From a virus (lineage: Duplodnaviria > Heunggongvirae > Uroviricota > Caudoviricetes), in the IMG/VR virus record IMGVR_UViG_2541047837_000002: a stretch of 17,927 bases of DNA. One strand, given 5' to 3'. How positions within the stretch are numbered: the first letter of the stretch is position 1; each line of letters starts with the position of its first letter. The notes below the pieces were generated by a model that saw only the letters and a program-made list of their open reading frames with translations, made no database searches and was not told the DNA's origin. Below are positions 1,264-17,927 of this stretch, piece by piece. The position numbers and the translations under genes are program-made.

Positions 1264-2157
1264 CTATTTCCAGTTACAAGCAGCTTGAAGTGGTTTTAGC
1301 GCGTTTGACAGGCCGTTTAAATTGAAAGTTGCACTTACAGGGCTCTCATTATAAGGAGTTATTTTTGTATACATTTTGTTTGAGTTGGCTAGTTTTCGGA
1401 TGAAATCAATGTCATTACCTTTATAAAAAACAGCCTTTGTATCTGTAGATACTAGCCAGTTTCGCTCAACTGCTTTCTGTTTATCAAGACGATAAAGCAT
1501 GCTGGTTTGTTCAAGGCCTAAATATACATCCCAACTAAGAAATACTTCGGTTTTCTTTTCTCGGCAAGCTATAAACAGAGTAGGAGTAACCGCTTCTCCA
1601 AATGGAGTTCTGATATAATCATCACTTTCTAACGATAAAATTACATTTTTCGAATCATCAATTGGCGATGTAGTAATGGATGTGTGCCATTTTCCTACAT
1701 CTGTGGCTTTCTCTAATTTTGATTCAGCTTGAACAGCTTTATCCTGTGGGAATAGTTTATCGTAGCAGTTTAGTCTGGCTTCTTTATCATTTTCTGCTCG
1801 GCATTTAGATATCTCAGAAAGATTTGGTTGCTGAGCCTCTGTTGTTACTGGCTTTTCCGTTTTAGATTTTGAGTTTACAGATGGAGTAAATGTTGGAGAA
1901 AAAAAACGATCATAACAAGATAAACGTCTGTCATCATCTTTCTCATCAGGGCATTGATCTCTGTTTTCGAATTTTTCAGCAACTTTCGTTCGAGTCGGTT
2001 GTATTGACTTATCGTAACAAGAAAGTCTGTCTTTATTATTTTCTATTGCTCGGCACTGGAGTACTGCATTGAAGTTATTATGTTCAGTTGCTGCGTGAAC
2101 AGGCAGTACACTAATTGATATAAATGATGCACCTATAGAAAAAATTATATTTTTCAT
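1264..2157 (-). CDS. Secreted protein of unknown function with three Cys-pair repeats
   Basis: 297-aa ORF with an N-terminal signal peptide (MKNIIFSIGASFISISVLPVHA|ATE). Three degenerate repeats of the form C-x8-RL-[SN]-CYD-[KR]: CRAIENNKDRLSCYDK, CPDEKDDDRRLSCYDR, CRAENDKEARLNCYDK. AT-rich codon usage unlike the neighbouring flk. Confidence 0.7.
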   Translation of the reverse strand: MKNIIFSIGASFISISVLPVHAATEHNNFNAVLQCRAIENNKDRLSCYDKSIQPTRTKVAEKFENRDQCPDEKDDDRRLSCYDRFFSPTFTPSVNSKSKTEKPVTTEAQQPNLSEISKCRAENDKEARLNCYDKLFPQDKAVQAESKLEKATDVGKWHTSITTSPIDDSKNVILSLESDDYIRTPFGEAVTPTLFIACREKKTEVFLSWDVYLGLEQTSMLYRLDKQKAVERNWLVSTDTKAVFYKGNDIDFIRKLANSNKMYTKITPYNESPVSATFNLNGLSNALKPLQAACNWK

Positions 2158-2161
2158 TTTG

Positions 2162-2494
2162 TTATCCTTTTGGTTTAGTAAGAAACACTAAAATTCCGAT
2201 AATGATATCGCCAATAACCCATAAACTTCCAATGGTAATTAAACCTAAGCCTGTACCAATAACTGCACCGGCTTTTTCGGCATCGGATGTAGCATTATTT
2301 ATTATTTCACTAGTGCCTCCCAGTCCAACTAAAAGCGTATAGATCATAAAAATATTAAATAATATAAAAATCCACTTAATGAGCTTTCCAAAAAATGAAC
2401 GCTTAAGTTTTTTTATTTGTTTACCGCAAGCAGGGCAATACAATGCTGAATCGCTCACCTCTTTCTGGCATTCAGGACATTTGATTAATGCCAT
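2162..2494 (-). CDS. Small zinc-ribbon membrane protein (N-terminal CxxC-x12-CxxC, two predicted TM helices)
   Basis: 110-aa ORF: MALIKCPECQKEVSDSALYCPACGKQI, then two hydrophobic segments (IKWIFILFNIFMIYTLLVGL and ITIGSLWVIGDIIIGILVF). AAGGAGG-like RBS 8 nt upstream of the ATG. Its stop is 5 nt from the start of the 297-aa ORF, so the two are probably co-transcribed. Confidence 0.7.
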   Translation of the reverse strand: MALIKCPECQKEVSDSALYCPACGKQIKKLKRSFFGKLIKWIFILFNIFMIYTLLVGLGGTSEIINNATSDAEKAGAVIGTGLGLITIGSLWVIGDIIIGILVFLTKPKG

Positions 2495-2755: not shown

Positions 2756-2896
2756 TTACTGCTTACACTGTAAGAACGCCGCAAACTCCGCTCCCCAGAA
2801 ACTCATCCGTATTTCGCACAGCGAACCGTGCAACATCCAGATGATGAGGATTACCGTCACGCAGAACGTGATGGCTGTAAGCGATTTTTGCGACAT
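2756..2896 (-). CDS. Hok/Gef-family type I toxin (small membrane peptide)
   Basis: 46-aa ORF missing from the ORF track: MSQKSLTAITFCVTVILIIWMLHGSLCEIRMSFWGAEFAAFLQCKQ. It has one TM helix followed by the family-typical SLCEIR ... E-x-AAF-x-x-C motif. GGAG RBS upstream (aaaaGGAGcaagtgctATG). Confidence 0.7.
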   Translation of the reverse strand: MSQKSLTAITFCVTVILIIWMLHGSLCEIRMSFWGAEFAAFLQCKQ

Positions 2897-3086: not shown

Positions 3087-3347
3087 TTAATTCTTAGGTA
3101 AAGGCAAACTCATCTGATTGTTTCCCCTGTGTGAAGCTGGTAGCTCATGCCACGGGATACCTTCTGAAGAGTGAACGCCGGAGGCGTGTTTCGATGTGAA
3201 TTTATGGAAAGCTTCCAGTGTTGAGAAGCATACGCCGCATTCCAGATTGTTACACTGGTAATACTTTTGCCGCACGGTGTTTGAATCATTTTCCGGACGA
3301 CTTGTGCGGATACGGGCAGATGCGCCACAAAGCGGACAACGGAACAT
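3087..3347 (-). CDS. ogr: Ogr/Delta-family zinc-finger late-gene transcriptional activator
   Basis: 86-aa ORF starting MFRCPLCGASARIRTSR ... YYQCNNLECG, i.e. the Cys4 arrangement and N-terminal signature of P2 Ogr (MFHCPLC...RTSR...QC.N..C). GGGAGG RBS upstream. Confidence 0.85.
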   Translation of the reverse strand: MFRCPLCGASARIRTSRPENDSNTVRQKYYQCNNLECGVCFSTLEAFHKFTSKHASGVHSSEGIPWHELPASHRGNNQMSLPLPKN

Positions 3348-3538: not shown

Positions 3539-4561
3539 ATGGGAAGAGATATAACGCTGTACCCTAAAAAAGCAACTAGAAACGAACTTAAAAATTACCT
3601 TGAAAATTTAGGTTTTAAAAGGTGTAAACATTTGTGGGAATGGCCCCAAGGAACGTTGAATTACTCTTGGTTTGATGATACGGACTTCAAATCTACAGAT
3701 GGAGTTTCGGCTGATATATATCCTGTTTCAAATGACGAACTACACATATCTGGTAATAAATGGGCATTGCATGTGCGTAATTTATATAGCGCTAGTTGGC
3801 ATGATGTAAAAATGCTTAATGATGTTCTAAAAGGCGCACGGAGTCTTTTTGGTGGAACACTTATAGGTGATTATGGGAAAAATAGGTACGCTCCTCTATG
3901 GAAGGATTCTAGTAGTCCGATCAGTCGTGGCATTTCTTCAATATTTAATCATGTCCATCATGAGATTTCCGCTGTTAAACATGCCTTACCTGAACCTTCT
4001 ATTAAATTAAACCTACCGGAAGATGGCGGCTTATCCGAATACTTTGATTACATGCAATGTATGGATCCCAGTAGAGTTATATATAATGGATTAGTACCTT
4101 TTGCGGTTGCTATGTTTGAATATTTTTTCTCTAGAGCTTTTCAAATACTTATAAAGTACGATCCTTTCGCAATAGCAAAAAGAACATCGTATAAGCAAAA
4201 AGTTGATTTTGATATTCTGCTTGAGATAGAGAAAGGAAATATTTCAATAGAAAGTGTTATTGCAAGAAATTACACTTTTCAAAACTTAACCCACCTAAAC
4301 AAAGCATATAAAGAGTGGCTGGATATAGATGTGAGAGCGATTCTTTATAAGAAAAAAAGAATTGGAAAATCAGTTGATTTTCTTGAGAATCGAATTTCTG
4401 AAATCATACAATATAGACATGGGATAGTTCATCACTTTGAGTTGGATAGGACCTTAAATCGGGATGGATATATTCATATATTAGATGCGATAGAAAAAAG
4501 CATAATTGAATTTATCCATTACATAGAAGGCAAATACAAATTTAAATTAAATGCGTATTAA
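3539..4561 (+). CDS. Hypothetical cargo protein with a C-terminal HEPN-like Rx4H motif; candidate abortive-infection or defence protein
   Basis: 340-aa ORF, conspicuously AT-rich compared with the flanking ogr and D, with an AT-rich promoter-like upstream region and an AGGTGA RBS. C-terminal segment ENRISEIIQYRHGIVHHFELDR contains R-x4-H. No other family signature recognised. Confidence 0.75.
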   Translation: MGRDITLYPKKATRNELKNYLENLGFKRCKHLWEWPQGTLNYSWFDDTDFKSTDGVSADIYPVSNDELHISGNKWALHVRNLYSASWHDVKMLNDVLKGARSLFGGTLIGDYGKNRYAPLWKDSSSPISRGISSIFNHVHHEISAVKHALPEPSIKLNLPEDGGLSEYFDYMQCMDPSRVIYNGLVPFAVAMFEYFFSRAFQILIKYDPFAIAKRTSYKQKVDFDILLEIEKGNISIESVIARNYTFQNLTHLNKAYKEWLDIDVRAILYKKKRIGKSVDFLENRISEIIQYRHGIVHHFELDRTLNRDGYIHILDAIEKSIIEFIHYIEGKYKFKLNAY

Positions 4562-4681: not shown

Positions 4682-5782
4682 TCACTCTGTTTCTGCTATC
4701 CATTCCGGGATTTTTGCCTCAAGCTCAAGCTGTGTGGTAAAGCCGCTGTTATCAATGGTGTGCTCGGCTTTTGCAATAATCCAGTCCTGATTATCAATCT
4801 CGCTTTTAAAGCCTGTTACCGTGCCATGCATTTCGGGGTAGAGTTCTGCGCGTCCGCGTGCCAGCATGATGGAGAATGATGCGGCTCCGCGTTGTAGCTG
4901 CTGCCACTTTGCCGCCGCTGCGCGTCTTGCTGCCTGCTCGTTCTGATAAGTCTTGCGTAACACAAACACATTGCCTTCCGCGCCTTCCATATAATCACCT
5001 TCACGGCTGCTGCTTTTCTCCTTTTTCGATTTGCGGCGTTTCACGCTGACTTTTTTCTTTTTCCCGTAATTAAGATCAAGCCAGTAGGCGCGTACACCCG
5101 TATACGCCTCGCGGTCAGCAATGCGAAACTGATGGCGATCGCCGCTGCTGCGTGTGATGGCAAACGATGGCAATGGTTTTCCCTGCGCGTTCACGCCACC
5201 GCCTGGCATGATGAATAACAGATTACCGCTTTTTACCGTGGTGATTGCGCCCAGCATTTCCGCCATGCGCGTAAGGAAGGACATGTCACTTTCTTCGGTC
5301 TGGTCGGCGTGGTCGATTTCGATATCCATCAGCATTTCGCTAATTTGCGGTTTCAGACCGTACCGATGAGCGATGGCGGATACCACACGCTCAACGGTCA
5401 CATCATGCCAGGACACCTCACGTTTAACGTTAAATTCATCCCGAAAATCTGCGCTTCTGGCCGAAATGGTCAGCCTGTCCGGCGGTCCTTCGTGAGCGAT
5501 TTCATCAACAATGTAAGTGCCTTTTTCTGTCAGCGGTTCTCCTTTCCAGCCAATGAGAACCGTCAGGCGCGCGCCCCGTGGCGGTAGCTGCAACTGACCA
5601 TCCGCATCATCCAGCGTGATGGTGAGCTGGTCCGCCTCAAATCCCCGGTTGTCGGTCAGTGACAGGCTCATCAGGCGCTCTGCCACGCCTGACAGCGTTT
5701 TACCCTCCGCGAGAATATCAAAATCCGGCATTTTCACGGGGTCTGTGCCCTGACTGAGCAATTGCATGGTGGTGTCGGTCAT
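4682..5782 (-). CDS. D: P2 gpD-like tail protein
   Basis: The ORF track gives 410 aa from a non-ATG start. The likely true start is the ATG at 5782 (MTDTTMQLLSQGTDPVKMPDFDIL...), which has a GGGAGGG RBS 5 nt upstream. Size and sequence are consistent with P2 late gene D. Confidence 0.85.
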   Translation of the reverse strand: MTDTTMQLLSQGTDPVKMPDFDILAEGKTLSGVAERLMSLSLTDNRGFEADQLTITLDDADGQLQLPPRGARLTVLIGWKGEPLTEKGTYIVDEIAHEGPPDRLTISARSADFRDEFNVKREVSWHDVTVERVVSAIAHRYGLKPQISEMLMDIEIDHADQTEESDMSFLTRMAEMLGAITTVKSGNLLFIMPGGGVNAQGKPLPSFAITRSSGDRHQFRIADREAYTGVRAYWLDLNYGKKKKVSVKRRKSKKEKSSSREGDYMEGAEGNVFVLRKTYQNEQAARRAAAAKWQQLQRGAASFSIMLARGRAELYPEMHGTVTGFKSEIDNQDWIIAKAEHTIDNSGFTTQLELEAKIPEWIAETE

Positions 5783-5939
5783 CTGTTCCCTCCCTGTGCG
5801 GCATGGTCGCATGTGCGTGCGGAGGGGGTTACTGCTTTTTGTTGTCGCCGGGTCGGGAGAACGGCGCAGGGGTGAGATTACGCGCGTGGTGGGTGATGAT
5901 TGTTGCCGAATCATTTAACGGATACAAGGGGCTGAAGCT

Positions 5940-7124
5940 ATGAGTGAAACTCGTTTTCATGGTGCCCGTGTTACGGAAAATACCGACCTGGTAACAGCGA
6001 TTAACGATGTTGATTCCAGCGTTATCGGTATCGTGGCAACGGCGGATGATGCGGACGCGAAGCTGTTCCCGCTGAACAAGCCCACACTGCTGACCCGCGT
6101 CAATGACGTGCTGGGAAAATGCGGGACAACGGGGACGCTTTATCGTGCACTTAAGGCCATCGCAGACCAGGTGAGCACAAAGGTGATCGTCGTTCGCGTG
6201 GCTGAACACAAAGAAGAAGACGGAAAGACGCAGGATCAACTGGTTATCGGTGGTTCTGAGGATGACGGCAGCTATACGGGGATGTATGCGCTGCTTGTTG
6301 CAGAGCAGGATGAAAGCATCGGATACCGTCCGCGTATTCTGGCCGCGCCGGAGCTGGACACGGAGGCTGTAACAAAATCCCTGTGCGTGATTGCAGGTAA
6401 ACTGCGCGCGTTTGTGTATGCCTCATGTTACGGCTGTAACACGATGGCTGAGGCGATTACCTACCGCCAGAAATTCAACGAACGTGAGGTGATGCTCTTA
6501 TGGCCGGACTTCATCGCCTACAACCCGAAAAGTGGCAAAAACGAAACGTTCCCCGCGCCTGCCTATGCGTGCGGCCTTCGTGCGTACATTGACCATGAGC
6601 AGGGCTGGCACAAATCATTGTCCAACGTTCCGGTTAAAAATGTGCTGGGGATGTCGAGGCATGTGTTCTGGTCGTTGCAGGCCGAAGACAGCGATGCCAA
6701 CAGCCTCAACAACAAAGAAATCACGACCATTATTCGTCGCAACGGGTTCCGCTTCTGGGGCAACCGCACACCGGAAACGAACGCCTACATCTTTGAGGTG
6801 TATACCCGAACCGCACAGGTGCTGGCTGATTCAATTGCGGAAGCGCAGTTTGAAACCATCGACAGTCCACTGACGCCTGCGAATGTGAAGGATGTTATCA
6901 GTGCCATCAGGGCAAAACTGGATTCGCTGGTTACTGCCGGGAAACTGATTGGTGCGGAGTGCTGGTATGACGTGGTGGATAACGGCACCACGAATTTACG
7001 TCAGGGGCGTGTGCGTATTCGCTACAAATATACGCCCGTTCCGCCACTGGAAGACATGGAGCTTTACCAGACGTTTACTGATGAATACTTTGAACCCGCA
7101 TTTGCGGTGCTGGGAGGTGCCTGA
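5940..7124 (+). CDS. FI: Contractile tail sheath protein (P2 FI-like)
   Basis: 394-aa ORF with conserved blocks shared with P2 FI as I recall it (FPLNKP, KLRAF.Y, EQGWHK.LSNV, RRNGFRFWGNRT, YKYTPVPPLE). Stop overlaps the FII start (TGATG). Confidence 0.9.
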   Translation: MSETRFHGARVTENTDLVTAINDVDSSVIGIVATADDADAKLFPLNKPTLLTRVNDVLGKCGTTGTLYRALKAIADQVSTKVIVVRVAEHKEEDGKTQDQLVIGGSEDDGSYTGMYALLVAEQDESIGYRPRILAAPELDTEAVTKSLCVIAGKLRAFVYASCYGCNTMAEAITYRQKFNEREVMLLWPDFIAYNPKSGKNETFPAPAYACGLRAYIDHEQGWHKSLSNVPVKNVLGMSRHVFWSLQAEDSDANSLNNKEITTIIRRNGFRFWGNRTPETNAYIFEVYTRTAQVLADSIAEAQFETIDSPLTPANVKDVISAIRAKLDSLVTAGKLIGAECWYDVVDNGTTNLRQGRVRIRYKYTPVPPLEDMELYQTFTDEYFEPAFAVLGGA

Positions 7125-7636
7125 TGGCTGTGCCAAAACATCTTCGCTTTTTTACGCTGTTTGTGGATGGTGAAAACGAAGTGGGTAAGGTGACGTCCGT
7201 CACTCTGCCTAAGCTGACGCGCAAAACCGACAGCTACCGGGGGGGCGGCATGATGGGTGCGGTAAGCATTGATCTCGGTCTGGAAGACTCCGCGCTTGAT
7301 GCGAGCTTTGTCATGGGGGGCGCAGTTCGTGAGCTGTTCCTTAAGTATGGCGGCACGATTGACGGCACGCTGCTGCGTTTTGCGGGTGAATACTACACCG
7401 ATGCAGAAAGTGACCTGTATGAAGTCGAAATGCGCGGACGTGTGACGGAAATTGATATGGGGGAAGCCAAACAGGGCGAAGCCACATCACACACTTACGC
7501 CATTAAAAACACCTACTACAAGCTGAGTGTTAACGATCGCCCGTTGTGGGAGATTGACCTGCTGAACTTCATTTACCGGAAGGACGGCAAGGACATTGTG
7601 CCCGATCGCATCCGTTCCGCGCTCGGGCTTGGCTGA
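7124..7636 (+). CDS. FII: Tail tube protein (P2 FII-like)
   Basis: 170-aa ORF immediately after the sheath gene with a 1-nt stop/start overlap. Size and position match P2 FII. Confidence 0.88.
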   Translation: MAVPKHLRFFTLFVDGENEVGKVTSVTLPKLTRKTDSYRGGGMMGAVSIDLGLEDSALDASFVMGGAVRELFLKYGGTIDGTLLRFAGEYYTDAESDLYEVEMRGRVTEIDMGEAKQGEATSHTYAIKNTYYKLSVNDRPLWEIDLLNFIYRKDGKDIVPDRIRSALGLG

Positions 7637-7690
7637 TAAGTAATATGCAGGCGGCGCAGTGCGTCGCCTCTGACTGAAAGGAGTTTCCTG

Positions 7691-8056
7691 ATGAAAGAGA
7701 CGAAAAACATCGATACCGAAAACACGGTAGTTACTGACACTGTGAAAGAAACCAGTGAGCGTGGCGTAAAACTTACCCAACCAATTGAGCGAGGCGGCGA
7801 AAAAATCACGTATGTGGAGATCACCGGGGCTATTGAGCAGGCTGGATCTCTGCGAGATTTGTCGCTGTCTGATGTGCTGAATCTGAAAGCGGAATCCATG
7901 TTTACGCTGCTGTCACGCGTGACATCACCGCGACTGGATGAAGTGACGATCAAAAAAATGGCATCCCGTGACTTTATTCAGTTATGTGTGGTTGCCGTAA
8001 ATTTTTTGAGCGGTGCGGACTCTGGCGGGAAGAACGAACAGGCGACGGAAGCCTGA
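7691..8056 (+). CDS. E: Tail assembly chaperone E (zero-frame product)
   Basis: 121-aa ORF with an AAGGAG RBS. The internal block DVLNLKAESMFTLLSRVTSP resembles P2 gpE. It contains the TTTTTTG slippery heptamer near its 3' end. Confidence 0.8.
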   Translation: MKETKNIDTENTVVTDTVKETSERGVKLTQPIERGGEKITYVEITGAIEQAGSLRDLSLSDVLNLKAESMFTLLSRVTSPRLDEVTIKKMASRDFIQLCVVAVNFLSGADSGGKNEQATEA

Positions 8057-8220
8057 TCACGGTTGTGTGCTTTGAGCACATTGAAGACTTTGTGGCAGAT
8101 ATTGCCGTTATTTTTAACTGGTCGCCCGCCGAAATCTTCATGATGACGCCCGGCGAAGTGGTTAGCTGGCGTGAGCGGGCGGCACTTCGCAGCGGGAATG
8201 CAGACAATGAAGACTCTTGA
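7691..8220 (+). CDS. E+E' tail chaperone fusion made by programmed -1 ribosomal frameshift
   Basis: The -1 frame ORF 7984-8220 has no plausible independent start and continues from the slippery site at 8002-8008. This is the conserved chaperone pair located between tube and tape-measure genes. Confidence 0.7.
8002..8008 (+). promoter_or_regulatory. -1 frameshift slippery heptamer T TTT TTG
   Basis: X XXY YYZ heptamer in the E reading frame (codons AAT TTT TTG). After a -1 shift it reads FFERCGLW..., identical to the 7984-8220 ORF. Confidence 0.7.
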
Positions 8221-11014
8221 TATCCGGGTCGCTTTCAGCGCCGTTGACAGGCTGACCCGACCTGCCGAAAACGCCCGCCGCCTGATGGGGCAGTTTGGTG
8301 ACTCCATCCAGCGAACGCAGGGGGCGATCAAAAATCTCGAGCGTCAGGCGCGATCATTTGAGCGCGCCCGCGACGCTGTCAGTAAAGCGGACGCGGGCAT
8401 CGTGAAAGCACGACGCCAGCTTAACGCCCTTAATCAGTTACAACGCACGGGTACAGTGCTCAGCGAAAAACAACAAAAGCTGATGCAGCAGTTAAGCACC
8501 CGGCTTGAACGCCTGAATGAATCGCGCACACGGGAAATTCAGAAAATGCGGGAGCTTGGCGGAGAACTGAAACGCCACGGCATTTCCCTGACAGGCAGCG
8601 ATAACACCATTCAGCAGGCCATCAGACGCACCGAACAGTACAACAACCAGCTTGAACGCGAACGGCAGGCGCTTGCGCGTGTAACGCGGGCGCGTGAGCG
8701 GTATTCGCGCGCGCAGGAAACCGCGGGAAAACTGAAAACAGGTGGTGCGCTGGCAATTGGTGCGGCAGCGGCGGGCGGCTATGCTGCCGGGCGTTTTTTG
8801 CAGCCTGCGATCGGGTTCGGCAAAGAGATGTCCCGCGTTCAGGCACTGACGCGAATCGACAAAAACAGCCCGCAGTTTAAGGCGCTGCGTGAGCAGGCGT
8901 TAAAACTGGGCTCTGAAACGCAGTTCACCGCAGGCGATGCCGCCAGTGGGCAGGCATTTCTTGCAATGGCTGGCTTTACACCACAGGCCATTCAGGCTGC
9001 GCTCCCTGGCGTACTGAGCATGGCAACGGCTGGCGGTATGGACCTCGGTGAGACGGCGGATATTGGCTCAAATATTCTGACGCAGTTCGGTCTTTCTGCT
9101 GACCAGATGGACCGGGTCGGCGACACACTCACCGCAGCGTTTACCCGTACCAACACTGACCTTCGCGCACTGGGTGAAACCATGAAATATGCAGGTCCGG
9201 TGGCGGGTAAGCTGGGAATATCGCTGGAGCAGGCCGCAGCGATGGCGGGCGTGCTGGCGAATATGGGTATCAGGGGGAGTGATGCTGGTACGGCAATGCG
9301 TGCCAGCCTGGCTCGTCTGGCATCACCGCCAAAGGCGGCAGCAGAGGCGCTGAAAGAGCTTGGCGTGTCTGTCTCGGATGCCGGGGGCAAAATGCGCCCG
9401 ATGGAGGATGTGCTGGCTGACCTTTATAAAGCTACCCGCAAATACGGGGAAGTTGACCGGGTATCGTTCTTTAAGGACATTGCCGGAGAAGAGGCTTTCA
9501 CATCATTTATGGCCCTCGTTGATGCGGCAGGTGACGGCTCCTTACCCAAACTGAGAAAAGAACTTGAAGGCGCGCGCGGTGAGGCTGAACGCACGGCAAA
9601 GGTTATGGCCAACAACCTTGACGGCGATCTGAAATCACTCAGCAGTGCATGGGAAGGGTTGCGCATCCGCATTGCAGATCTGATTGACGGTCCGCTGCGT
9701 TCTGTCACGCAGTGGCTCACGCGTGTGGTATCAAAGGTGACGGCGCTGGCGCAGGCCCATCCCGCACTGACGCGCCAGCTACTGATTGCAGGCGGTGCAC
9801 TGCTGGCAATGACTGCAACGGTTGGCTCGTTGTCGCTGGCTATTGGTGTGCTTGCTGGCCCGCTGGCAAAACTGCGTCTTGGTTTTTCCCTCCTGACCGG
9901 ATCAATGAATGCTGTCAGGGTTCTGCCAGCACTATGGGGAATGGTGACGGGTTCCGTTTCTTTACTGGGAGGCGCTATCGGGGCGTTGTTCAGTCCGGTT
10001 GGTCTTATCGTGGCTGCGCTTGCCGGAGCTGCCGTTCTTATCTGGAAATACTGGGATCCCATCAGGGCATTTTTTGCCGGGGTGTTCAGCGGGATTATGG
10101 AAAGGCTGACCCCGTTGCGCGAAACCTTTGAACGGTTTGGTCCTGTTTTTGACGCAATCGGGAGTGGGATCAGCCAGGTGTTTAACTGGTTTAAATCGCT
10201 GCTGTCACCGATGGAGTCCAGCAAGGAAACTCTGGATAAATGTACCAGTGCTGGCGAGATATTCGGTAACGTTCTTGGCGGTGCGTTACAGCTTGTTCTG
10301 ACACCTGCAAAAATGTTGCTGGATACGCTGGCGTGGATACTTGAAAAGCTTGGTGTGCTTCCGGATGAAGCGGAAAGGGCGCGCAAGAAAATCGAAGACG
10401 CACAGCGTGCGGCCATTCTTCAGGACAAGGTTGCCTTGCTTCAGGGGGACCTGGCGAAAATCAATCCGCCGAAGCCTGTGGAAAATGGCAATGGCACCGG
10501 AGGTGATAACCCCAAAGACAATAAACCGCTCACAGACAGCAATACCGGTACGCTGCGCAGACTCAGCAAAATTGCTGATAACACAGGTAAGCTGGTTGAG
10601 GAGACGAAAAAACGCATTGGCCCCGGCGATATTGTCTTTAAAAACCTGCCCCGAGCACTTGCTGTTCGTGGGGAGTGGCAGGAGCGGAAGATTGCGCAGG
10701 TCAGTAAGCCTGCCCCCGCAATTAATATCACACCCGTGGTCCCGGCTCCGCTGCCTCCGGCGCTGGTCCCTGTTGTTGCGGCCAGCTCCCGCCCGGTGGC
10801 GGAGGCTATACGATCTCCAGTGGCATCAGTTCCTGTAACTTCCCGTAACCGGGAGCCTGTTGCCTCCGGATTTGGTGGTGAAATTCATGTTCATCTGCAT
10901 AACGTTGTTACGCAGAATCCCCGCGAACTGGCGAAACTGGTCGGTGAAATGGTCAGGGCAGAAATGGAACGGCGCGCCCGTGCCGGGCGTGGCAGTTTTT
11001 ACGATAAAGATTGA
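8198..11014 (+). CDS. T: Tail tape-measure protein (P2 gpT-like)
   Basis: Ala/Gly-rich ORF of about 938 aa with a coiled-coil N-terminal part and internal hydrophobic segments, placed between E/E' and U. The start is uncertain between the ATGs at 8198 and 8207; the ORF track's 8171 is a non-ATG start. Confidence 0.88.
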   Translation: MQTMKTLDIRVAFSAVDRLTRPAENARRLMGQFGDSIQRTQGAIKNLERQARSFERARDAVSKADAGIVKARRQLNALNQLQRTGTVLSEKQQKLMQQLSTRLERLNESRTREIQKMRELGGELKRHGISLTGSDNTIQQAIRRTEQYNNQLERERQALARVTRARERYSRAQETAGKLKTGGALAIGAAAAGGYAAGRFLQPAIGFGKEMSRVQALTRIDKNSPQFKALREQALKLGSETQFTAGDAASGQAFLAMAGFTPQAIQAALPGVLSMATAGGMDLGETADIGSNILTQFGLSADQMDRVGDTLTAAFTRTNTDLRALGETMKYAGPVAGKLGISLEQAAAMAGVLANMGIRGSDAGTAMRASLARLASPPKAAAEALKELGVSVSDAGGKMRPMEDVLADLYKATRKYGEVDRVSFFKDIAGEEAFTSFMALVDAAGDGSLPKLRKELEGARGEAERTAKVMANNLDGDLKSLSSAWEGLRIRIADLIDGPLRSVTQWLTRVVSKVTALAQAHPALTRQLLIAGGALLAMTATVGSLSLAIGVLAGPLAKLRLGFSLLTGSMNAVRVLPALWGMVTGSVSLLGGAIGALFSPVGLIVAALAGAAVLIWKYWDPIRAFFAGVFSGIMERLTPLRETFERFGPVFDAIGSGISQVFNWFKSLLSPMESSKETLDKCTSAGEIFGNVLGGALQLVLTPAKMLLDTLAWILEKLGVLPDEAERARKKIEDAQRAAILQDKVALLQGDLAKINPPKPVENGNGTGGDNPKDNKPLTDSNTGTLRRLSKIADNTGKLVEETKKRIGPGDIVFKNLPRALAVRGEWQERKIAQVSKPAPAINITPVVPAPLPPALVPVVAASSRPVAEAIRSPVASVPVTSRNREPVASGFGGEIHVHLHNVVTQNPRELAKLVGEMVRAEMERRARAGRGSFYDKD

Positions 11015-11020
11015 GGAGTC

Positions 11021-11515
11021 ATGGCCATGATGATGATCTACGGCATGTTTGTTTTTGAGCTGCGCACGCTGCCGCATCAGCAGTTACAGCAAAACAAAAG
11101 CTGGCGGCATGTGAAAAATGAACGCGTTAACCGTTCAGCAAGCTGGCAGTATATCGGTGCAGGTGATGATCGCATCGTTCTTTCTGGTGTGCTTTATCCT
11201 GAAATTACAGGTGGCGAAGTGTCGCTGTCGCTGCTGACCACGCAGGCGTATACAGGACGACCCTGGCCTTTGATTGATGGCGTCGGGCAGATTTACGGCA
11301 TGTATGTCCTGACTGAAACGAATACGACCCGCTCCGAGTTTGATCGCTACGGTAAGGCGAAAAAGATAGAATTTTCACTGACTCTTGAACGCTGTGATGA
11401 GGATTTGCGGGAGCGCCTGCAATCCTCATCGTTCAGTGATATGCTGTCCGGCTTCAAAGATAAGGTGACATCATCTCTTAACAGCGCGGCCAGTTCAGTT
11501 AAAGGGCTGTTCTGA
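11021..11515 (+). CDS. U: Tail protein U (P2 gpU-like)
   Basis: 164-aa ORF (MAMMMIYGMFVFELRTLPHQ ... YPEITGG ... YGMYVLTE) resembling P2 gpU, directly after the tape-measure gene. Confidence 0.85.
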   Translation: MAMMMIYGMFVFELRTLPHQQLQQNKSWRHVKNERVNRSASWQYIGAGDDRIVLSGVLYPEITGGEVSLSLLTTQAYTGRPWPLIDGVGQIYGMYVLTETNTTRSEFDRYGKAKKIEFSLTLERCDEDLRERLQSSSFSDMLSGFKDKVTSSLNSAASSVKGLF

Positions 11516-11526
11516 TTTAACACAAA

Positions 11527-11556
11527 AACCGCTAATGGTCAGATTAGCGGTTTTCA
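11527..11556. terminator. Bidirectional intrinsic terminator between U (+) and the invertase gene (-)
   Basis: Stem aaccgctaat / attagcggtt (11527-11536 and 11543-11552) with loop ggtcag, flanked by T-runs on both strands (ttttcatttt downstream on plus; ttttgtgtt on minus). Confidence 0.6.
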
Positions 11557-12143
11557 TTTTCCTGAGTCTGCCCGGTTGTTTCTTCAGTCTGTATATCGCC
11601 TACAGGGTGATAACGATAAATCGTCGATGTGCCAATGCCGTAAATTATTGCCAGTTGTTTTCTGTCGTGCCCGTTTTTGATTAGCCTTGCTATTTGCTCA
11701 TGCTGTTCTTTTGTCAGCTTCGGTCGACGTCCGCCTGTGCGCCCCCTTGCGCGCGCTGCCGCCAGCCCGGCCAGTGTACGTTCAACAATTAATTCACGTT
11801 CCATTTCAGCCAGGGCACCCATCACGTGGAAGAAAAAACGCCCCATTGGAGAAGATGTGTCTATGCTGTCGGTCAGACTGCGAAAATTAATCCCTCGCTC
11901 CCGTAGTTCCCCGACGAGAGAAATCAGATGTTTCATGCTTCGCCCGAGGCGATCCAGTTTCCAGACAACCAGCGTGTCACCTTTTTGAAGGCGCTTTAAA
12001 GCGCGTTTTAATCCCGGTCGGTCTGTCTTTGTCCCGCTTAATTTATCTTCAAATATTTGTTCACATCCTGCACAAACAAGAGCGTTTCGTTGCAGGTCTG
12101 TATTCTGGTCATTTGTTGATACCCTTACATAGCCAATCAGCAC
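11544..12143 (-). CDS. Serine-recombinase DNA invertase (Hin/Gin/Cin/Pin family)
   Basis: The N-terminus LIGYVRVSTNDQNTDLQ carries the catalytic-Ser motif of the resolvase/invertase family, and a C-terminal HTH-like region (LAIIYGIGTSTIYRY) follows. The likely start is the GTG at 12143, preceded by AGGAGA; the ORF track's 12161 is a TTG further upstream. Confidence 0.85.
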   Translation of the reverse strand: MLIGYVRVSTNDQNTDLQRNALVCAGCEQIFEDKLSGTKTDRPGLKRALKRLQKGDTLVVWKLDRLGRSMKHLISLVGELRERGINFRSLTDSIDTSSPMGRFFFHVMGALAEMERELIVERTLAGLAAARARGRTGGRRPKLTKEQHEQIARLIKNGHDRKQLAIIYGIGTSTIYRYHPVGDIQTEETTGQTQENENR

Positions 12144-12197
12144 ACTGAATCTCCTGTCCAAAAGCGCAAATCATGCCATGCAGGCCAGAAACGGCCA

Positions 12198-12223
12198 TTA
12201 TTTAAAACCTCGGTTTACAGGAA
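12198..12223. other. Invertase crossover site, gix/hix-like 26-bp (left boundary of invertible segment)
   Basis: ttatttaaaacc-tc-ggtttacaggaa has imperfect dyad symmetry with half-sites TTATTTAAAACC and TTCCTGTAAACC around a 2-bp core. It matches the reverse complement of the site at 14876-14901 at 21 of 26 positions. Confidence 0.75.
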
Positions 12224-13084
12224 ACGGTAAACAGGGCTGGTAACGCCGTGCAAAAAAATGGCGATACCTTGTCCGGTGGGCTTACTTTTGAAAATGACTC
12301 AATCCTTGCCTGGATTCGAAATACTGACTGGGCGAAGATTGGATTTAAAAATGATGCCGATGGTGACACTGATTCATACATGTGGTTTGAAACAGGCGAC
12401 AACGGCAATGAATATTTCAAATGGAGAAGCCGCCAGAGCACCACAACAAAAGACCTGATGACGCTGAAATGGGATGCACTAAATATTCTTGTTAATGCTG
12501 TCATTAATGGCAGTCTTGGAGTTGGTTCGACGAATGCGTTAGGTGGTAGCTCTATTGTTCTTGGTGATAATGACACCGGATTTAAACAGAATGGAGACGG
12601 TATTCTGGATGTTTATGCTAATAGTCAGCGTGTATTCCGCTTTCAGAATGGAGTGGCTATTGCTTTTAAAAATATTCAGGCCGGGGATGGTAAAAAATTC
12701 ACGCTATCCAGCTCCAACAACTCCACAAAGAATGCAACGTTTAATTTATGGGGTGCTTCAACCCGTCCAGTAGTTGCAGAGTTAGGCGATGAGGCAGGAT
12801 GGCATTTCTATAGCCAGCGAAATACAGATAACTCGGTAATATTTTCTGTTAACGGTCAGATACAGCCCAGCAACTGGGGGAATTTTGATTCACGCTATGT
12901 AAAAGATGTTCGCCTGGGTACGCGTGTTGTTCAATTGATGGCGCGTGGTGGTCGTTATGAAAAAGCCGGACACGCAATTACCGGATTAAGAATCATTGGT
13001 GAAGTAGATGGCGATGATGAAGCCATCTTCAGACCAATACAAAAATACATCAATGGCACATGGTATAACGTCGCACAGGTGTAA
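12212..13084 (+). CDS. Silent alternative tail-fibre C-terminal (host-range) cassette Sv', promoterless in this orientation
   Basis: The reading frame is open from the crossover core (GLQETVNRAGNAVQKNGDTLSGGL...) and ends with INGTWYNVAQV, parallel to the expressed fibre C-terminus ...INGTWYNAGSI. The ORF track begins it at the GTG at 12248. Confidence 0.75.
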   Translation, partial: GLQETVNRAGNAVQKNGDTLSGGLTFENDSILAWIRNTDWAKIGFKNDADGDTDSYMWFETGDNGNEYFKWRSRQSTTTKDLMTLKWDALNILVNAVINGSLGVGSTNALGGSSIVLGDNDTGFKQNGDGILDVYANSQRVFRFQNGVAIAFKNIQAGDGKKFTLSSSNNSTKNATFNLWGASTRPVVAELGDEAGWHFYSQRNTDNSVIFSVNGQIQPSNWGNFDSRYVKDVRLGTRVVQLMARGGRYEKAGHAITGLRIIGEVDGDDEAIFRPIQKYINGTWYNVAQV

Positions 13085-13087
13085 ATT

Positions 13088-13615
13088 ATGCAGCATTTAA
13101 AAAATATTAAGTCCGGAAATCCAAAAACAAAAGAACAATATCAGCTAACAAAAAATTTTGATGTTATCTGGTTATGGTCCGAAGACGGTAAAAACTGGTA
13201 TGAGGAAGTAAATAACTTTCAGGACGACACCATAAAGATTGTATACGACGAAAATAATATTATTGTTGCCATAACCAAAGATGCCTCAACACTTAATCCC
13301 GAAGGCTTTAGCGTCGTTGAGATTCCCGATATAACAGCCAATCGTCGTGCCGATGATTCAGGGAAGTGGGTGTTTAAGGACGGAACTGTGGTTAAGCGGA
13401 TTTATACAGCAGACGAACAGCAACAACAGGCCGAATCACAAAAGGCCGCGTTACTTTCAGAAGCTGAATCAGTCATCCAGCTTCTGGAACGTGCTGTCAG
13501 GCTGAATATGGCAACAGATGAGGAACGTACACGACTGGAAGCCTGGGAACGCTACAGCGTTCTGGTCAGCCGCGTGGATACGGCAAAGCCAGAATGGCCA
13601 CAAAAACCAGAGTAA
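13088..13615 (+). CDS. Tail-fibre assembly chaperone (silent copy, Tfa/gpG-like)
   Basis: 175-aa ORF paralogous to the minus-strand chaperone at 13644-14177 (shared [19 protein letters not shown] and [17 protein letters not shown] blocks). Confidence 0.8.
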
Positions 13616-13620
13616 AAATT

Positions 13621-13640
13621 AAGGCCCGATATCGGGCCTT
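13621..13640. terminator. Palindromic bidirectional terminator at the centre of the invertible segment
   Basis: 20-bp perfect palindrome aaggcccgatatcgggcctt between the two convergent chaperone genes, followed on the minus strand by a U-run (aattttt). Confidence 0.55.
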
Positions 13641-13643
13641 CTC

Positions 13644-14177
13644 TCATTCTGGTTGTTCGGGAAACGTTACTGGCAGGCTGGAGGTGTCTGTAGATTCGAC
13701 TTTCTGCGCAAAGAGCATCCACTCGGTTAATTTCTGCTTATTCTCGTCGGAAATGATGCCCAGCCGTAGCTGTGAGTCCCATAGCTGGGTTTTATCCCTG
13801 ACAAGTTGCAACAGGCTTTGCTTTTCATTTTCCGCTTGTTGTCTCTGCTCTTCCTCGGTATAAGTTCGCTTTATCACTACGCCATCTTTGAACATCCATT
13901 TCCCCGAAATATCAGCCCGGCGATTTGCTGTAATATCAGGTAATTCAACGACGCTTGCGCCTTCCGGATTAATTGCTGAAACATCCTTTTCAATACAAAT
14001 AATAACGCCGTTATGGTCATAGACCATTTTCAAAGTGTCTGGCTGGAAATTCTTTTGTTCCTCATACCAGTTTTTTCCATCATCTGAATAAAGCCATTTG
14101 ATGTTAAATTGCTTTGTTAGCTGATATTGCTCTTTTGTTTTAGGGTTGCCAGCAGTAATGTTTTTTAAGTGCATCAT
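13644..14177 (-). CDS. Tail-fibre assembly chaperone (expressed orientation, Tfa/gpG-like)
   Basis: 177-aa ORF directly downstream of the tail-fibre gene with a 4-nt overlap. Paralogue of 13088-13615. Confidence 0.85.
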   Translation of the reverse strand: MMHLKNITAGNPKTKEQYQLTKQFNIKWLYSDDGKNWYEEQKNFQPDTLKMVYDHNGVIICIEKDVSAINPEGASVVELPDITANRRADISGKWMFKDGVVIKRTYTEEEQRQQAENEKQSLLQLVRDKTQLWDSQLRLGIISDENKQKLTEWMLFAQKVESTDTSSLPVTFPEQPE

Positions 14178-14179
14178 CG

Positions 14180-16165
14180 TTAAATACTCCCCGCGTTATA
14201 CCACGTCCCATTAATGCAATACTGAATTGGCCTTGCCTGTGTTGTATCAATTAATTCATCACGGTTTCCGTTAACTGAACCCGTAACGACATAACCTGAC
14301 CTGTCAGACCAGCCGGGACCATTCCATGTCTGAACAGATGACAGACCGCCAAGGCGAATACCTGTAATAAACCTTGAGTTACATTCTGCCTGCGTATATG
14401 CACCAACATCTCCCGCTGAAGGTTTTCGTGTCGTGGTATAGAAATCTGACCAACCTAATTCAAACCCATAACCATCACGAGCCGACCTGTAGGAAATGCC
14501 ACCATTTTTATAATTCACACGGAATTGTACGGCAGGACAGCTACCAGCATTTATATTAAAGTGAAGAATTAATACAGATGCACCACCAATCAGGGCGTTA
14601 TATGCACCACTATCCCAATTCCATCCAACGGATGTATCACCATTAACAGTATTACCTGTTTGTCGGAGTGCAAATGCATTGACATTTTTGGCACTAATTG
14701 AAATATCGCTAGAACCATCAAAACCAACTCCAGCAATTTTTCGTGCTGTTTTCAGCTTTGTTGCAGTAGCGGCATTGCCGGACAGTTCCCCAGAAAGGCC
14801 ACCGCTGAATGTTTGTCGATTGGTCCAGGTATTCGCTGTACTGAGTAACGGTATTTTCTCCCCGCTTGTGCCGAGTTCTCGTAAACCGAGGTATTCGATA
14901 ACGGCGGCAACGGTCGATTTCGCAAGAATATCCCGCCCGACTTTTGTCAGGGTTGCCAGGCTGGCGACATCATTCCCCGTAAAATACGGAAACTTGTCTG
15001 CCGCAGTAGCAAGCCCGGCCAGCGCCGTCAGGGTGGCATCTTTCGGTTGCTTACCCGCAAGCGCGTTAGTCATGGTGGTCGCAAAATTCGGGTCGTTTCC
15101 CAGCGCCGCCGCTAACTCGTTCAGCGTATTCAGTGCGTCAGGTGACGAATCTACAAGGGCGGCAATCGCAGCCATAACGAAAGCCGTGCTTGCGATTTGG
15201 GTATTATTCGTTCCCTGTCGCGCAGTTGGCGTTGTTGGCGTTCCGGTCAACGCAGGACTGTTTAAGGGCGCTTTCTTGTTCGTTTCATCCATTACCGCCT
15301 TAACCGCTTTCGATGTCGCGGCCAGTGTTTCAGACGTGCTGTTGGTGGCACTACTGAGCTGGACTATCCCTTTTTGTGCCGTCGTAGCGTCTTGAGCGGT
15401 ATATTTTGCGTTAGCAAGGTCATACGCGGCCTTTACTGCTTTCGGCGTTGCAGCCTGCGTTTCAGACGTGCTGTTGGTGGCGCTACTGAGCTGGACAAGG
15501 CCTTTTCGCGTCGTGCTGGCATCCTGCGCAGTATATTTACCGTTAGCAAGATCATACGCGGCCTTTACTGCTTTCGGCGTTGCAGCCTGCGTTTCAGACA
15601 CGCTGTTAGTGGCGCTACTGAGTTGAACAAAGCCTTTTGCGGTCAGAGAGGCGTCCGGGTGACGTCGTGACTGTTCATGCTCTTTCAGTTTGTCATCCAC
15701 GTAATCCACTGTGGCCATCACCATGGTGTTATCCACGGTAAGCGCCACGGTGGCAGTGCTGGATACGGTCAGAATGGTGCGAAATGTTTGTGCACGTCCG
15801 GACCCTTCGGCAACGGCTGGCTTGTAACTTTCGGCAGTATTTCCCACCGCGATTAAATCGCCGTGCTCATCAAATACACCAATTTCCCGGATCCAGAATC
15901 CGCCCGTTTCAGGAGGAATAACCAGCTCCGCAATAATGCGGTTCTGATGTGTTGCGTCCAGGATGACGCGATTAACAGTATGTCGCCACACCTCATGCAC
16001 CAGACGGGTCTGCTTACTGTCTGGTGTGGGCAACGTGCCGCCACCGTCGCCCACGGCCATATGAGTCAGGCGGACAGGCTTACCATCTGGCGCGGCTGCC
16101 TGCGCTAATTTTTTGGCACCCGTATCGGTGATAACGGTTTTAAATTTACGTGTTGTGGTACTCAT
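14180..16165 (-). CDS. H: Tail fibre protein (P2 gpH-like constant N-terminal part fused to a variable C-terminal domain)
   Basis: 661-aa ORF. The N-terminus (MAVGDGGG, HEVWRH, IIAELVIPPE.GGFW, AESYKP) and central region (GIVQLSSATNSTSETLAAT ... ALNTLNELAAALGNDP.FATTMTNALAGKQPK) resemble P2 H as I recall it. Resemblance to P2 H ends at IEYLG, which is where the crossover site lies. Confidence 0.9.
   Translation of the reverse strand: MSTTTRKFKTVITDTGAKKLAQAAAPDGKPVRLTHMAVGDGGGTLPTPDSKQTRLVHEVWRHTVNRVILDATHQNRIIAELVIPPETGGFWIREIGVFDEHGDLIAVGNTAESYKPAVAEGSGRAQTFRTILTVSSTATVALTVDNTMVMATVDYVDDKLKEHEQSRRHPDASLTAKGFVQLSSATNSVSETQAATPKAVKAAYDLANGKYTAQDASTTRKGLVQLSSATNSTSETQAATPKAVKAAYDLANAKYTAQDATTAQKGIVQLSSATNSTSETLAATSKAVKAVMDETNKKAPLNSPALTGTPTTPTARQGTNNTQIASTAFVMAAIAALVDSSPDALNTLNELAAALGNDPNFATTMTNALAGKQPKDATLTALAGLATAADKFPYFTGNDVASLATLTKVGRDILAKSTVAAVIEYLGLRELGTSGEKIPLLSTANTWTNRQTFSGGLSGELSGNAATATKLKTARKIAGVGFDGSSDISISAKNVNAFALRQTGNTVNGDTSVGWNWDSGAYNALIGGASVLILHFNINAGSCPAVQFRVNYKNGGISYRSARDGYGFELGWSDFYTTTRKPSAGDVGAYTQAECNSRFITGIRLGGLSSVQTWNGPGWSDRSGYVVTGSVNGNRDELIDTTQARPIQYCINGTWYNAGSI
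14876..14901. other. Invertase crossover site, gix/hix-like 26-bp (right boundary, inside the tail-fibre gene)
   Basis: ttctcgtaaacc-ga-ggtattcgataa, inverted relative to 12198-12223 with the same 2-bp core. It encodes IEYLGLRE in the fibre frame, and the left site gives NLGLQE in the same frame, so the frame is preserved on inversion. Confidence 0.75.
15266..15640. repeat. Tandem repeats of about 132 bp (about 2.8 copies) within the tail-fibre gene
   Basis: DNA blocks gcctttactgctttcggcgttgcagcctgcgtttcagac and gtttcagacgtgctgttggtggc recur at about 132-bp spacing. They encode three 44-aa repeats (VQLSSATNS.SET.AAT.KAVKA ... YTAQDA.T..KG). Confidence 0.7.
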
Positions 16166-16167
16166 GC

Positions 16168-16611
16168 TTAATCGTCCGGATAAATGGTAATGACTTCACC
16201 GTCGTAAGTTGCTGCCGCCGCGAAAATATCTCCCGGGATCTCCTGAATGATATTCAGCCCTGTCATGTGGCGGCTGACCGGGCGGGCATCAGCAATCAAC
16301 CGCTCCATTTCCAGATACATTTCCTCCGTCACGCCACTGTCCAGCGTGCCCACTTCAACGGTAAATGTTCCCGGTTCTCCGCCGAACTCCCACCACTCAG
16401 ACACACGAATGAGGTATCCCAGCGGCTCAATGGCCCGGCGCAGTGCGCTGATGGTTCCCTTGTGTCGGTGTACCAGCCATGCATCACGAATCACCTGTCG
16501 TTTTGTCTCTTCCGGCCAGTTGCGATCCCAGCGGTCAACGGAAAATGCCCAGGCGAGATAAGGCAGCAGGTGCACCGGGCAGGTGTCCGGCGACCACAGC
16601 GTGTTGAGGTC
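16168..16611 (-). pseudogene. I: Truncated baseplate protein gpI (C-terminal part only, N-terminus deleted)
   Basis: The translation LWSPDTCPVHLLPYLAWAFSVDRWD ... EMERLIADA ... ATYDGEVITIYP matches the C-terminal two-thirds of P2 gpI. The frame has no proper start and hits an in-frame stop at 16615-16617. Confidence 0.75.
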
Positions 16612-16625
16612 TAACTAACTATGAG

Positions 16626-16826
16626 GTGAGGGGGAAGCAAGTAACAGAGGGTGCCTTACTTAAGGTTACGAAACACCCTAAATTTAAGAAGTATGCTTAT
16701 TGGTTATCAACAGATGAAACGATGCCGGAGGTCGGGCAAATTTCTCCGGCTCTCTCTCTTGATGGTTCCTGCAATTCGGAGGGAGATCGCGTTTCAACCG
16801 AAACAATCCAAAAATTATCCCGCTGA
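16626..16826 (+). pseudogene. Probable C-terminal fragment of a P2 C-type immunity repressor
   Basis: Sits directly upstream of int and co-directional, where C lies in P2. The block FKKYAYWLSTDETMPEVGQISPALSLDG resembles the C-terminal region of P2 C as I remember it. N-terminal HTH part is absent. Low certainty. Confidence 0.45.
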
Positions 16827-16922
16827 GGCCAGAAAACTGGTTAGACCTGCTTTTTGTCTGGTCTGATTATTGCTGGAAAGAGGCTGGAGAAATTGTAGAG
16901 CGGTTCATTGGAGGGCTTCGTA

Positions 16923-17927
16923 ATGTCGATTAAGAAGCTCGAAGATGGTCGTTATTTGCTGGACATCAGGCCGAACGGACGCAAGGGAAAGCGCGTGCGT
17001 AAGGTATTTGACAAAAAATCGGTAGCGGTGGCCACTGAACGCTACATCATGGCGAACGCTGAAAAGCGGGAATATATACAGGGCTACCGTGATCGTCGAA
17101 CGCTAAATGATTTGCTTGAGTTGTGGTGGATGTATCACGGCCAGCACAGGCGTAAGGCGGAAGAAGACCGAAAACAACTGCGCAACATAATTAATGAGCT
17201 TGGCGCTGATATGCAGGCTGTGGATCTTGATAAGCTGAAAATTATCGCGTGGCGTTCTCAAAAGATAGCTGAAGGATTGAAACCGTCATCTGCTAACAGG
17301 TACATGAATCGGTTATCCGGAATGTTTACCGTGCTGAAAAAAATAGGTCTTTGGGATGCAGAACATCCAGTAAGGGGAATTTCTATTCTTTATGTATCTC
17401 CACGAGAAATGGCGTTCCTGTCACAGAAGGAAGTGGCGCTATTGCTCGATACACTGGAGGGCGACTACTGGCGTGTTGCGCTTTTGTGTTTAAGCACAGG
17501 GGCGCGCTGGAGTGAAGCTTGTAAGCTTCGTGGTGAACAGATAGTTCATAACCGTGTAACGTTTCTTGAAACCAAAAATGGCCGGAAGAGAACAGTGCCA
17601 ATTTCGCAGGCAGTTTGTGAGGCGATCAAAACCAGAGAAACAGGCAGCTTGTTTGAGGTGAAGTACCGGGAATTCTGCCTGGCGCTGAAAAGAGTTAAGC
17701 CCGATTTACCAAAAGGCCAGGCTGCACATGTGCTGCGGCATACGTTCGCCAGCCATTTTGTGATGAACGGAGGAAACATTATTGCGCTTCAGAAGATTCT
17801 TGGTCACGCAACCATTCAGCAAACAATGGCATATGCGCATTTTGCACCGGATTACCTGCAGGATGCGGTGGCCCTTAATCCGCTGAAAGGTGGCGTAAGT
17901 GTCCACGCAGTGTCCACGGGGGATTAA
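16923..17927 (+). CDS. int: Tyrosine integrase, P2 Int family
   Basis: The N-terminus MSIKKLEDGRYLLDIRPNGRKGKRVRKVFDKKS and the catalytic region (LSTGARWSEA, HNRVTF, HVLRHTFASHF, ILGHATIQQTMAYAHFAPDYLQDA) closely parallel P2 Int. The ATG at 16923 has a GGAGGG RBS; the ORF track's 16908 is a TTG. The ORF is complete, with its stop at the window edge. Confidence 0.9.
   Translation: MSIKKLEDGRYLLDIRPNGRKGKRVRKVFDKKSVAVATERYIMANAEKREYIQGYRDRRTLNDLLELWWMYHGQHRRKAEEDRKQLRNIINELGADMQAVDLDKLKIIAWRSQKIAEGLKPSSANRYMNRLSGMFTVLKKIGLWDAEHPVRGISILYVSPREMAFLSQKEVALLLDTLEGDYWRVALLCLSTGARWSEACKLRGEQIVHNRVTFLETKNGRKRTVPISQAVCEAIKTRETGSLFEVKYREFCLALKRVKPDLPKGQAAHVLRHTFASHFVMNGGNIIALQKILGHATIQQTMAYAHFAPDYLQDAVALNPLKGGVSVHAVSTGD

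Follow-up and report, generated by a model that had tools for sequence, protein, structure and literature searches.

P88, the type of its group among the P2-like phages of the Peduoviridae, is a mitomycin-inducible, plaque-forming, contractile-tailed myovirus (PMC5285337). In P2, both C and int are expressed from the promoter Pc, located in the C-cox intergenic region, and excision requires Cox as directionality factor (PMC3936717). A complete P2-like prophage is expected to carry the structural genes, a complete switch, int, attL and attR, and cryptic P2-like prophages devoid of the regulatory region are common in enterobacterial genomes (PMC3448106).

The stretch of DNA analyzed here, referred to as the window, is 17,927 nucleotides long and contains the following features.

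1-996, minus strand: flk, a host gene (ORF listing, Pfam, RefSeq annotation of identical DNA)
1227-1236, no strand: flk-side att core TGTTATCTGT (longest string common to both prophage-host junctions in VE-F10)
1264-2157, minus strand: TagO/VasI-like (type VI secretion-associated) gene (ORF listing, Pfam, RefSeq annotation)
2162-2494, minus strand: zinc-ribbon membrane protein gene (ORF listing, Pfam, RefSeq annotation)
2756-2896, minus strand: hok, Hok/Gef toxin (ORF listing, Pfam, RefSeq annotation)
3087-3347, minus strand: ogr, late-gene activator, retained (Pfam Ogr_Delta, E=5e-14)
3539-4561, plus strand: 340-aa ORF between D and ogr (ORF listing)
4682-5791, minus strand: gene D, retained, full length (Pfam Phage_GPD; comparison with P88_4B11 gpD)
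5940-11515, plus strand: tail module FI, FII, E/E', T and U, retained (ORFs; same protein accessions as in the IHE3034 prophage)
11544-12143, minus strand: serine DNA invertase of the Pin/Gin/Cin type (Pfam Resolvase and HTH_7; 'DNA invertase' in P88_4B11)
12194-14905, no strand: invertible tail-fibre segment (blastn against intact and remnant loci)
14180-16165, minus strand: tail fibre gene H, 661 aa in the present orientation of the segment (Pfam Phage_tail_fib and Phage_fiber_2; IHE3034 gene order)
16168-16611, minus strand: gene I fragment, residues 30-176 of 176 plus stop codon, pseudogene (translation, Pfam, IHE3034 alignment)
16612-16613, no strand: deletion junction, 2-bp TA common to both parental arms (three-way alignment)
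16614-16826, plus strand: gene C 3' fragment, codons 37-106 plus stop codon (IHE3034 alignment, P2 C structure match)
16827-16922, plus strand: native C-int spacer, unchanged (inside a 100% match to intact prophages)
16923-17927, plus strand: int, P2-type tyrosine integrase, intact (Pfam; WP_000023404.1)

In complete genomes, pdxB is the next gene after int according to the RefSeq annotation. Therefore, everything from position ~1230 to the end of the window is prophage DNA, inserted between flk and pdxB. The att core TGTTATCTGT is also present in the attP region of P88_4B11, and the partner core is located outside of the window, 78 nt beyond the int stop codon. The retained arms are collinear with P88, P88_4B11 and the prophage of E. 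coli IHE3034, and 96-100% identical to them. The prophage is of the P88 type (Xuanwuvirus, Peduoviridae; P2-like), and the element belongs to this known group as a defective member and does not represent a novel type of element. A preliminary description of this DNA had taken P2 as its model; the phage is P2-like but is not P2 itself. No Rfam family was detected at gathering score anywhere in the window.

The hok, zinc-ribbon and TagO/VasI-like genes are all present in phage P88_4B11; hence the att-proximal cargo consists of phage genes and not of host genes. The D frame is uninterrupted, and its product shares 98% identity with P88_4B11 gpD along the entire 369 aa. For this region (4682-5914, minus strand), RefSeq calls in several genomes a 264-aa 'VgrG/Pvc8 family' protein and a small pseudogene. 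The short D of RefSeq reflects an annotation start-site problem and no truncation. Furthermore, FI-U is inverted relative to P2, and FI and D are divergently transcribed, in all intact Xuanwuvirus genomes examined, showing that this arrangement is native and no part of the damage. A search for the Ogr-type dyad TGT-N12-ACA returned 2 matches versus 4.5 expected, none of them in the FI/D intergenic region (5792-5939). The 340-aa ORF is found between D and ogr both in the window and in IHE3034, whereas it is absent from P88_4B11, in which ogr directly follows D. Its product has a sub-threshold Pfam similarity to HEPN_RiboL-PSP (E=1e-4, 22.5 bits versus a cut-off of 28.4) and no PHROG or PADLOC match, and could possibly be encoded by an accessory or defence gene.

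We mapped the junction by blastn and three-way alignment against the intact prophage of IHE3034 (locus L003), which occupies the same chromosomal site. The I-side arm, which contains tail genes H and I (window 14881-16613), corresponds to L003 24762-23030 with 99.9% identity, and the C-side arm, with the 3' part of C and int (window 16612-17927), corresponds to L003 2931-1616 with 100% identity. Matches of 99.9-100% over 1.3-1.7 kb far exceed chance. The two arms overlap by 2 bp only, the TA at 16612-16613, and the intervening 20,100 bp of the intact prophage are absent from the window, close to the roughly 20 kb that had been estimated beforehand. In the three-way alignment, the I-side match ends with ...GAGGTCTA and the C-side match begins with TAACTAACTATGAGG..., which defines both breakpoints to the base. 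Gene I is broken at codon 29 with the loss of 85 nt. Gene C is broken at codon 36 with the loss of 106 nt, within P-Y-G-T-V|T-N-Y-E, which lies in the recognition helix based on alignment to P2 C and HTH_3. The same alignment revealed no homology or repeats at the breakpoints beyond the 2-bp TA, and no IS or foreign DNA at the joint. An overlap of 2 bp is about the chance level and tells little about the mechanism, except for the absence of long homology.

Two details of the preliminary description change at this resolution. The string ctaactaact is indeed present at the junction, but it is not a stop-codon filler; it is native coding sequence read in other frames, partly from I (..GGTCTA) and partly from C (GTA ACT AAC, coding for V36, T37 and N38). 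The C frame had also been said to start about 15 bp after I. However, TAACTAAC belongs to the coding sequence of C, which leaves no room for a 15-bp spacer: C sequence begins at the junction itself (16612/16614), and position 16626 is only the first in-frame GTG.

Altogether, we conclude with a probability of about 0.9 that this region is the scar of an illegitimate, homology-independent deletion within a P88-like prophage of the P2 family inserted between flk and pdxB. The 20,100 bp between codon 36 of C and codon 29 of I were lost, leaving a joint that shares only the 2-bp TA. End-joining or replication slippage could be the route of this illegitimate recombination, which fits a joint that contains no IS, no foreign DNA and no homology longer than 2 bp.

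We then used the 151-bp junction as a query against 5,426 complete E. coli genomes. The whole junction was found in four of them (VE-F10, LR-64-2, PEC399 and 364_BP0073), and one or the other of its halves in approximately 1,070. All four are complete circular chromosomes sequenced independently of one another; their origins are Viet Nam, Cambodia, a pig isolate and a human isolate. The identical 151-bp junction in four independent complete assemblies refutes the proposition that the junction is an assembly or window artefact resulting from a collapsed or chimeric contig, a general risk with any single assembly; we assign it virtually no weight. The deleted 20.1-kb block is present at a coverage of at least 80% in 918 of the 5,426 genomes, and at ~100% identity in IHE3034 and OkiPb01716 only. 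None of the four junction genomes is among the 60 best of these 918 matches, and a near-identical translocated copy of the block in the junction strains is therefore unlikely, this check being an indirect one that rests on absence from the 60 best matches. The locus itself contained no further phage modules in the VE-F10 and 364_BP0073 chromosomes, for which flanks of 20 kb and 3 kb were inspected, respectively, confirming that the missing modules do not lie elsewhere at this site.

Furthermore, the retained proteins have the same accessions in the remnant and in the IHE3034 prophage, and the 12.2-kb left arm differs from IHE3034 by 16 mismatches and 0 gaps. Such near identity of the retained genes to their intact copies suggests that the deletion is recent, and it would have arisen once, in the ancestor of a small lineage. 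In 364_BP0073, the closest complete genome, H is interrupted by IS5 (17858-18838, at about window positions 14706-14712). This insertion is absent from the window, which is therefore a fifth, slightly less decayed member of the junction lineage.

A second remnant of this prophage was found at the same flk-pdxB locus in PEC389 (NZ_CM168012.1, 25400-42300). PEC389 was considered as a near-isogenic intact parent and rejected, as it carries a different, independent remnant. Its gene order is int, full-length C, cox, a few early genes, two IS1A, a tail-fibre-assembly fragment, a family-9 glycosyltransferase, U-T-E-FII-FI, D, ogr and cargo. Like the window, it has kept the flk-side cargo, ogr, D, FI-U and int and has lost the replication, head and baseplate genes. 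In contrast to the window, its breakpoints are different and associated with two IS1A, C and cox are complete, and the tail fibre and invertase genes are lost. At least two losses of the center, each by a route of its own, have thus affected this prophage.

The preliminary description had invoked one large internal deletion. The loss is real; one deletion and successive deletions are indistinguishable in the final state, so a single event is not proven. The junction could have resulted from several deletions in succession, or from an IS-mediated deletion after which the IS itself was lost. The PEC389 remnant, which lost its center beside two IS1A copies, shows that stepwise and IS-driven decay does happen in this family, and the IS5 in the tail fibre gene of 364_BP0073 is also in keeping with it. 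Nevertheless, the junction carries neither IS nor foreign sequence, the two arms adjoin directly and share 2 bp, and no intermediate form was seen in a non-systematic look at the genomes matching the junction halves. We thus consider such a stepwise or IS-mediated origin unlikely.

The invertible tail-fibre segment raises another alternative to homology-independent deletion. The segment is bounded by crossover sites at 12198-12223 and 14876-14901, whose 26-bp sequences are TTATTTAAAACCTCGGTTTACAGGAA and TTATCGAATACCTCGGTTTACGAGAA, both with a central TC. The LR-64-2 and PEC399 segments were judged to have the orientation of VE-F10 from a shared match pattern (85%, two pieces). By blastn, the segment of the window is flipped relative to VE-F10 and IHE3034 (opposite strand) and lies on the same strand as in 364_BP0073. 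Both orientations are thus associated with an identical junction. Therefore, inversion occurred after the deletion, and the dead prophage still undergoes recombination by its invertase or by a Pin-type enzyme provided in trans.

Serine recombinases carry out strand exchange at a 2-bp core. With an invertase gene present and inversion having happened in the lineage, the prophage's own serine invertase might have deleted the block at two pseudo-crossover sites in direct orientation, the 2-bp overlap corresponding to the core of the staggered cut. When the parental breakpoints were compared with the genuine sites, 4-8 of the 26 positions matched, for a background mean of 7.0 and a 95th percentile of 11 across all 26-mers of the prophage locus, and pseudo-sites were rejected. 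Moreover, the genuine crossover sites have a central TC, whereas the junction has TA. A deletion by the invertase is accordingly very improbable.

The deletion left two truncated genes at the joint. The I frame is open from its stop codon (16168-16170) up to 16611, i.e. over 147 codons, followed by a junction-derived Leu codon and TAG, and its translation reads ...DLNTLWSPDTCPVHLLPYLAW...IYPDD*. This fragment matches Pfam Tail_P2_I (PF09684) with E=2e-44 and 151 bits, well within the family (gathering cut-off 20.6), over profile positions 26-138 of 139, whereas the intact homologue of 176 aa covers positions 1-138. It is not a full-length gpI, as residues 1-29 (profile 1-25) and the native start are missing; the earliest in-frame start-like codon is a GTG at 16575. 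At the DNA level, it is 99.9% identical to L003 23030-23475. In four genomes, PGAP labels it 'incomplete, missing N-terminus' and flags it as a pseudogene. The gpI-like frame running to about 16611 without a start, as first described, was thus confirmed.

On the other side of the joint, the DNA of the plus-strand frame with its end at 16826 matches without any difference (100% identity) the last 215 nt of a 106-aa HTH gene located upstream of int in intact prophages (L003 2931-2717). The intact 106-aa parent protein is homologous to characterized C proteins: it matches the solved P2 C repressor (PDB 2XCJ/2L49) with E=4e-16, shares 42% identity with the 'C protein' of phage Wphi and is annotated as 'immunity repressor' in phage PhiR44_2. 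The 70-aa fragment alone matches phrog_147 (transcriptional regulator) at positions 36-93 of 100 with E=3e-17. The preliminary description had recognized in this frame the C-terminal part of the P2 C repressor, and had considered that the 16626 ORF might prove unrelated to C; DNA identity, phrog_147 and, through the parent protein, the P2 C structure all identify it as C. By itself, the 66-aa ORF starting at GTG 16626 has no Pfam match because the remaining part of C lies outside any Pfam model, and neither the C fragment nor the cargo ORFs gave PADLOC (defence) matches. HTH_3 spans residues 12-54 of the parent protein, and the window copy begins at residue 37, inside the recognition helix. 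Consequently, the fragment has no N-terminal helix-turn-helix: helices 1-2 are missing together with the initial half of the recognition helix, and so are the native start and promoter. Unlike the I fragment, the C fragment is left unannotated in the RefSeq genomes; its short frame at 16626-16826 represents a repressor pseudogene and no new small gene. Since both the I and C fragments are deprived of native starts and promoters, we infer that they are non-functional pseudogenes.

Conversely, int is intact, in agreement with the preliminary description. It starts with an ATG at 16923, in an ORF open from TTG 16908, is full length with both the Int_N and Phage_integrase Pfam domains, and its product, WP_000023404.1, has the same accession in the remnant and in intact prophages.

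The content of the missing block was read from the IHE3034 annotation between the breakpoints. From the C side, the prophage has lost 106 nt at the start of C, cox and the 113 bp that separate the two genes, followed by approximately 10 small early genes, the replication endonuclease (gpA type), parM/parR-like genes and an ead/Ea22-like gene. The genes for portal, large terminase, scaffold, major capsid, small terminase, head completion and tail protein X are also missing, as are those for holin, endolysin and spanin, for tail completion (R and S types) and for the baseplate (V, W and J). On the I side, the loss extends over the initial 85 nt of I. Gene H has thereby lost its native upstream genes V-W-J and their promoter region. 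The genome record of Xuanwuvirus P884B11 (phage P88_4B11) shows the same gene order for the block, and both this phage and IHE3034 place cox and the early, replication, head, lysis, R, S, V, W and J genes between I and C, as had been deduced from P2.

What was kept consists of the I and C stumps lying back to back, both att cores, an intact int, the tail genes for sheath, tube and tape measure with U and D, the tail fibre and invertase genes, ogr and the cargo genes. With sheath, tube, tape measure, U, D, fibre and ogr all intact, the element could be mistaken for one that never had head or replication genes, such as a natural tail-only (tailocin-like) module or a satellite. This has hardly any chance of being correct, as both genes at the joint are internal fragments with 99.9-100% DNA identity to the interiors of full-length genes, and no tail can be built with V, W, J, R and S missing. 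Compared with a complete P2-like prophage (PMC3448106), int and the att cores are present, and the switch (C 5' end, intergenic region and cox), head, lysis, baseplate and replication genes are absent, so that the element counts as cryptic.

Because int and the att cores were kept but cox and the C-int promoter region are gone, int has probably been deprived of both a Pc-type promoter and Cox, and the element is probably fixed in the chromosome. The abnormal regulation of int that had been proposed on first description is made more plausible by the deletion of the C-cox region and by the lack of a sigma-70-like site on the plus strand upstream of int: none was found in 16000-16920 by a simple scan, which in the intact locus picked up a Pe-like plus-strand site and missed a Pc-like site and is therefore weak evidence on int transcription. 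Excision could nonetheless take place by way of weak or read-through promoters, or if Cox came from a P2-like phage in the same cell; otherwise, it would require Cox and Int in trans. The remnant itself should be unable to replicate or to form particles. Furthermore, C-type immunity and repression of the early promoter by the C fragment are expected to be absent since the HTH, start codon and promoter are gone.

Defective P2-related prophages act as a recombination reservoir for incoming phages. It is conceivable that the remnant was kept because it is useful and not merely because it has yet to decay. As a reservoir, its invertible fibre cassette and intact tail genes would rescue or re-target incoming P2-like phages. 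Alternatively, the HTH-less C-terminal (dimerization) part of C, expressed from GTG 16626, would act in a dominant-negative manner on the repressor of a superinfecting phage of the same immunity. The conservation of the same arms in the window and in PEC389, two independent remnants, is compatible with selection, and equally with chance or with the hok locus, which could penalize the loss of the flk-side arm. We find retention for usefulness, in either form, very improbable. Decay of this kind is ordinary for prophages, and it matters little here beyond annotation. The scar means that the flk-pdxB prophage of the source strain is dead, with no particles, no immunity against phages of its own immunity type and probably no excision. 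The locus provides a clean example of recent decay, resolved to the base, in a phage family found in about one-sixth of complete E. coli genomes, and its junction could mark the lineage of the few strains in which it occurs.

Compared with known systems, the window has the same gene order as P88, Xuanwuvirus P884B11 and the IHE3034 prophage (inverted FI-U, invertible fibre, ogr, hok, zinc-ribbon and TagO-like cargo, int and C), and the same attachment site as the IHE3034 prophage. It differs from all three by the absence of the central 20.1 kb, which begins with the 5' part of C and extends to that of I. With P2, it shares homology of C, a Tail_P2_I gpI, a P2-type integrase and the lysogenic C-int arrangement, with a Cox family protein in the intact relative. 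However, C is only ~40-45% identical to that of the P2/Wphi group, the integration site differs, the FI-U operon is inverted and the fibre is controlled by an invertase. Finally, as in the cryptic P2-like remnants described previously (PMC3448106), structural genes are kept and the switch is incomplete. In contrast to those remnants, int and both att cores have survived here, and the existence of nearly identical intact prophages allows base-level mapping of the scar.
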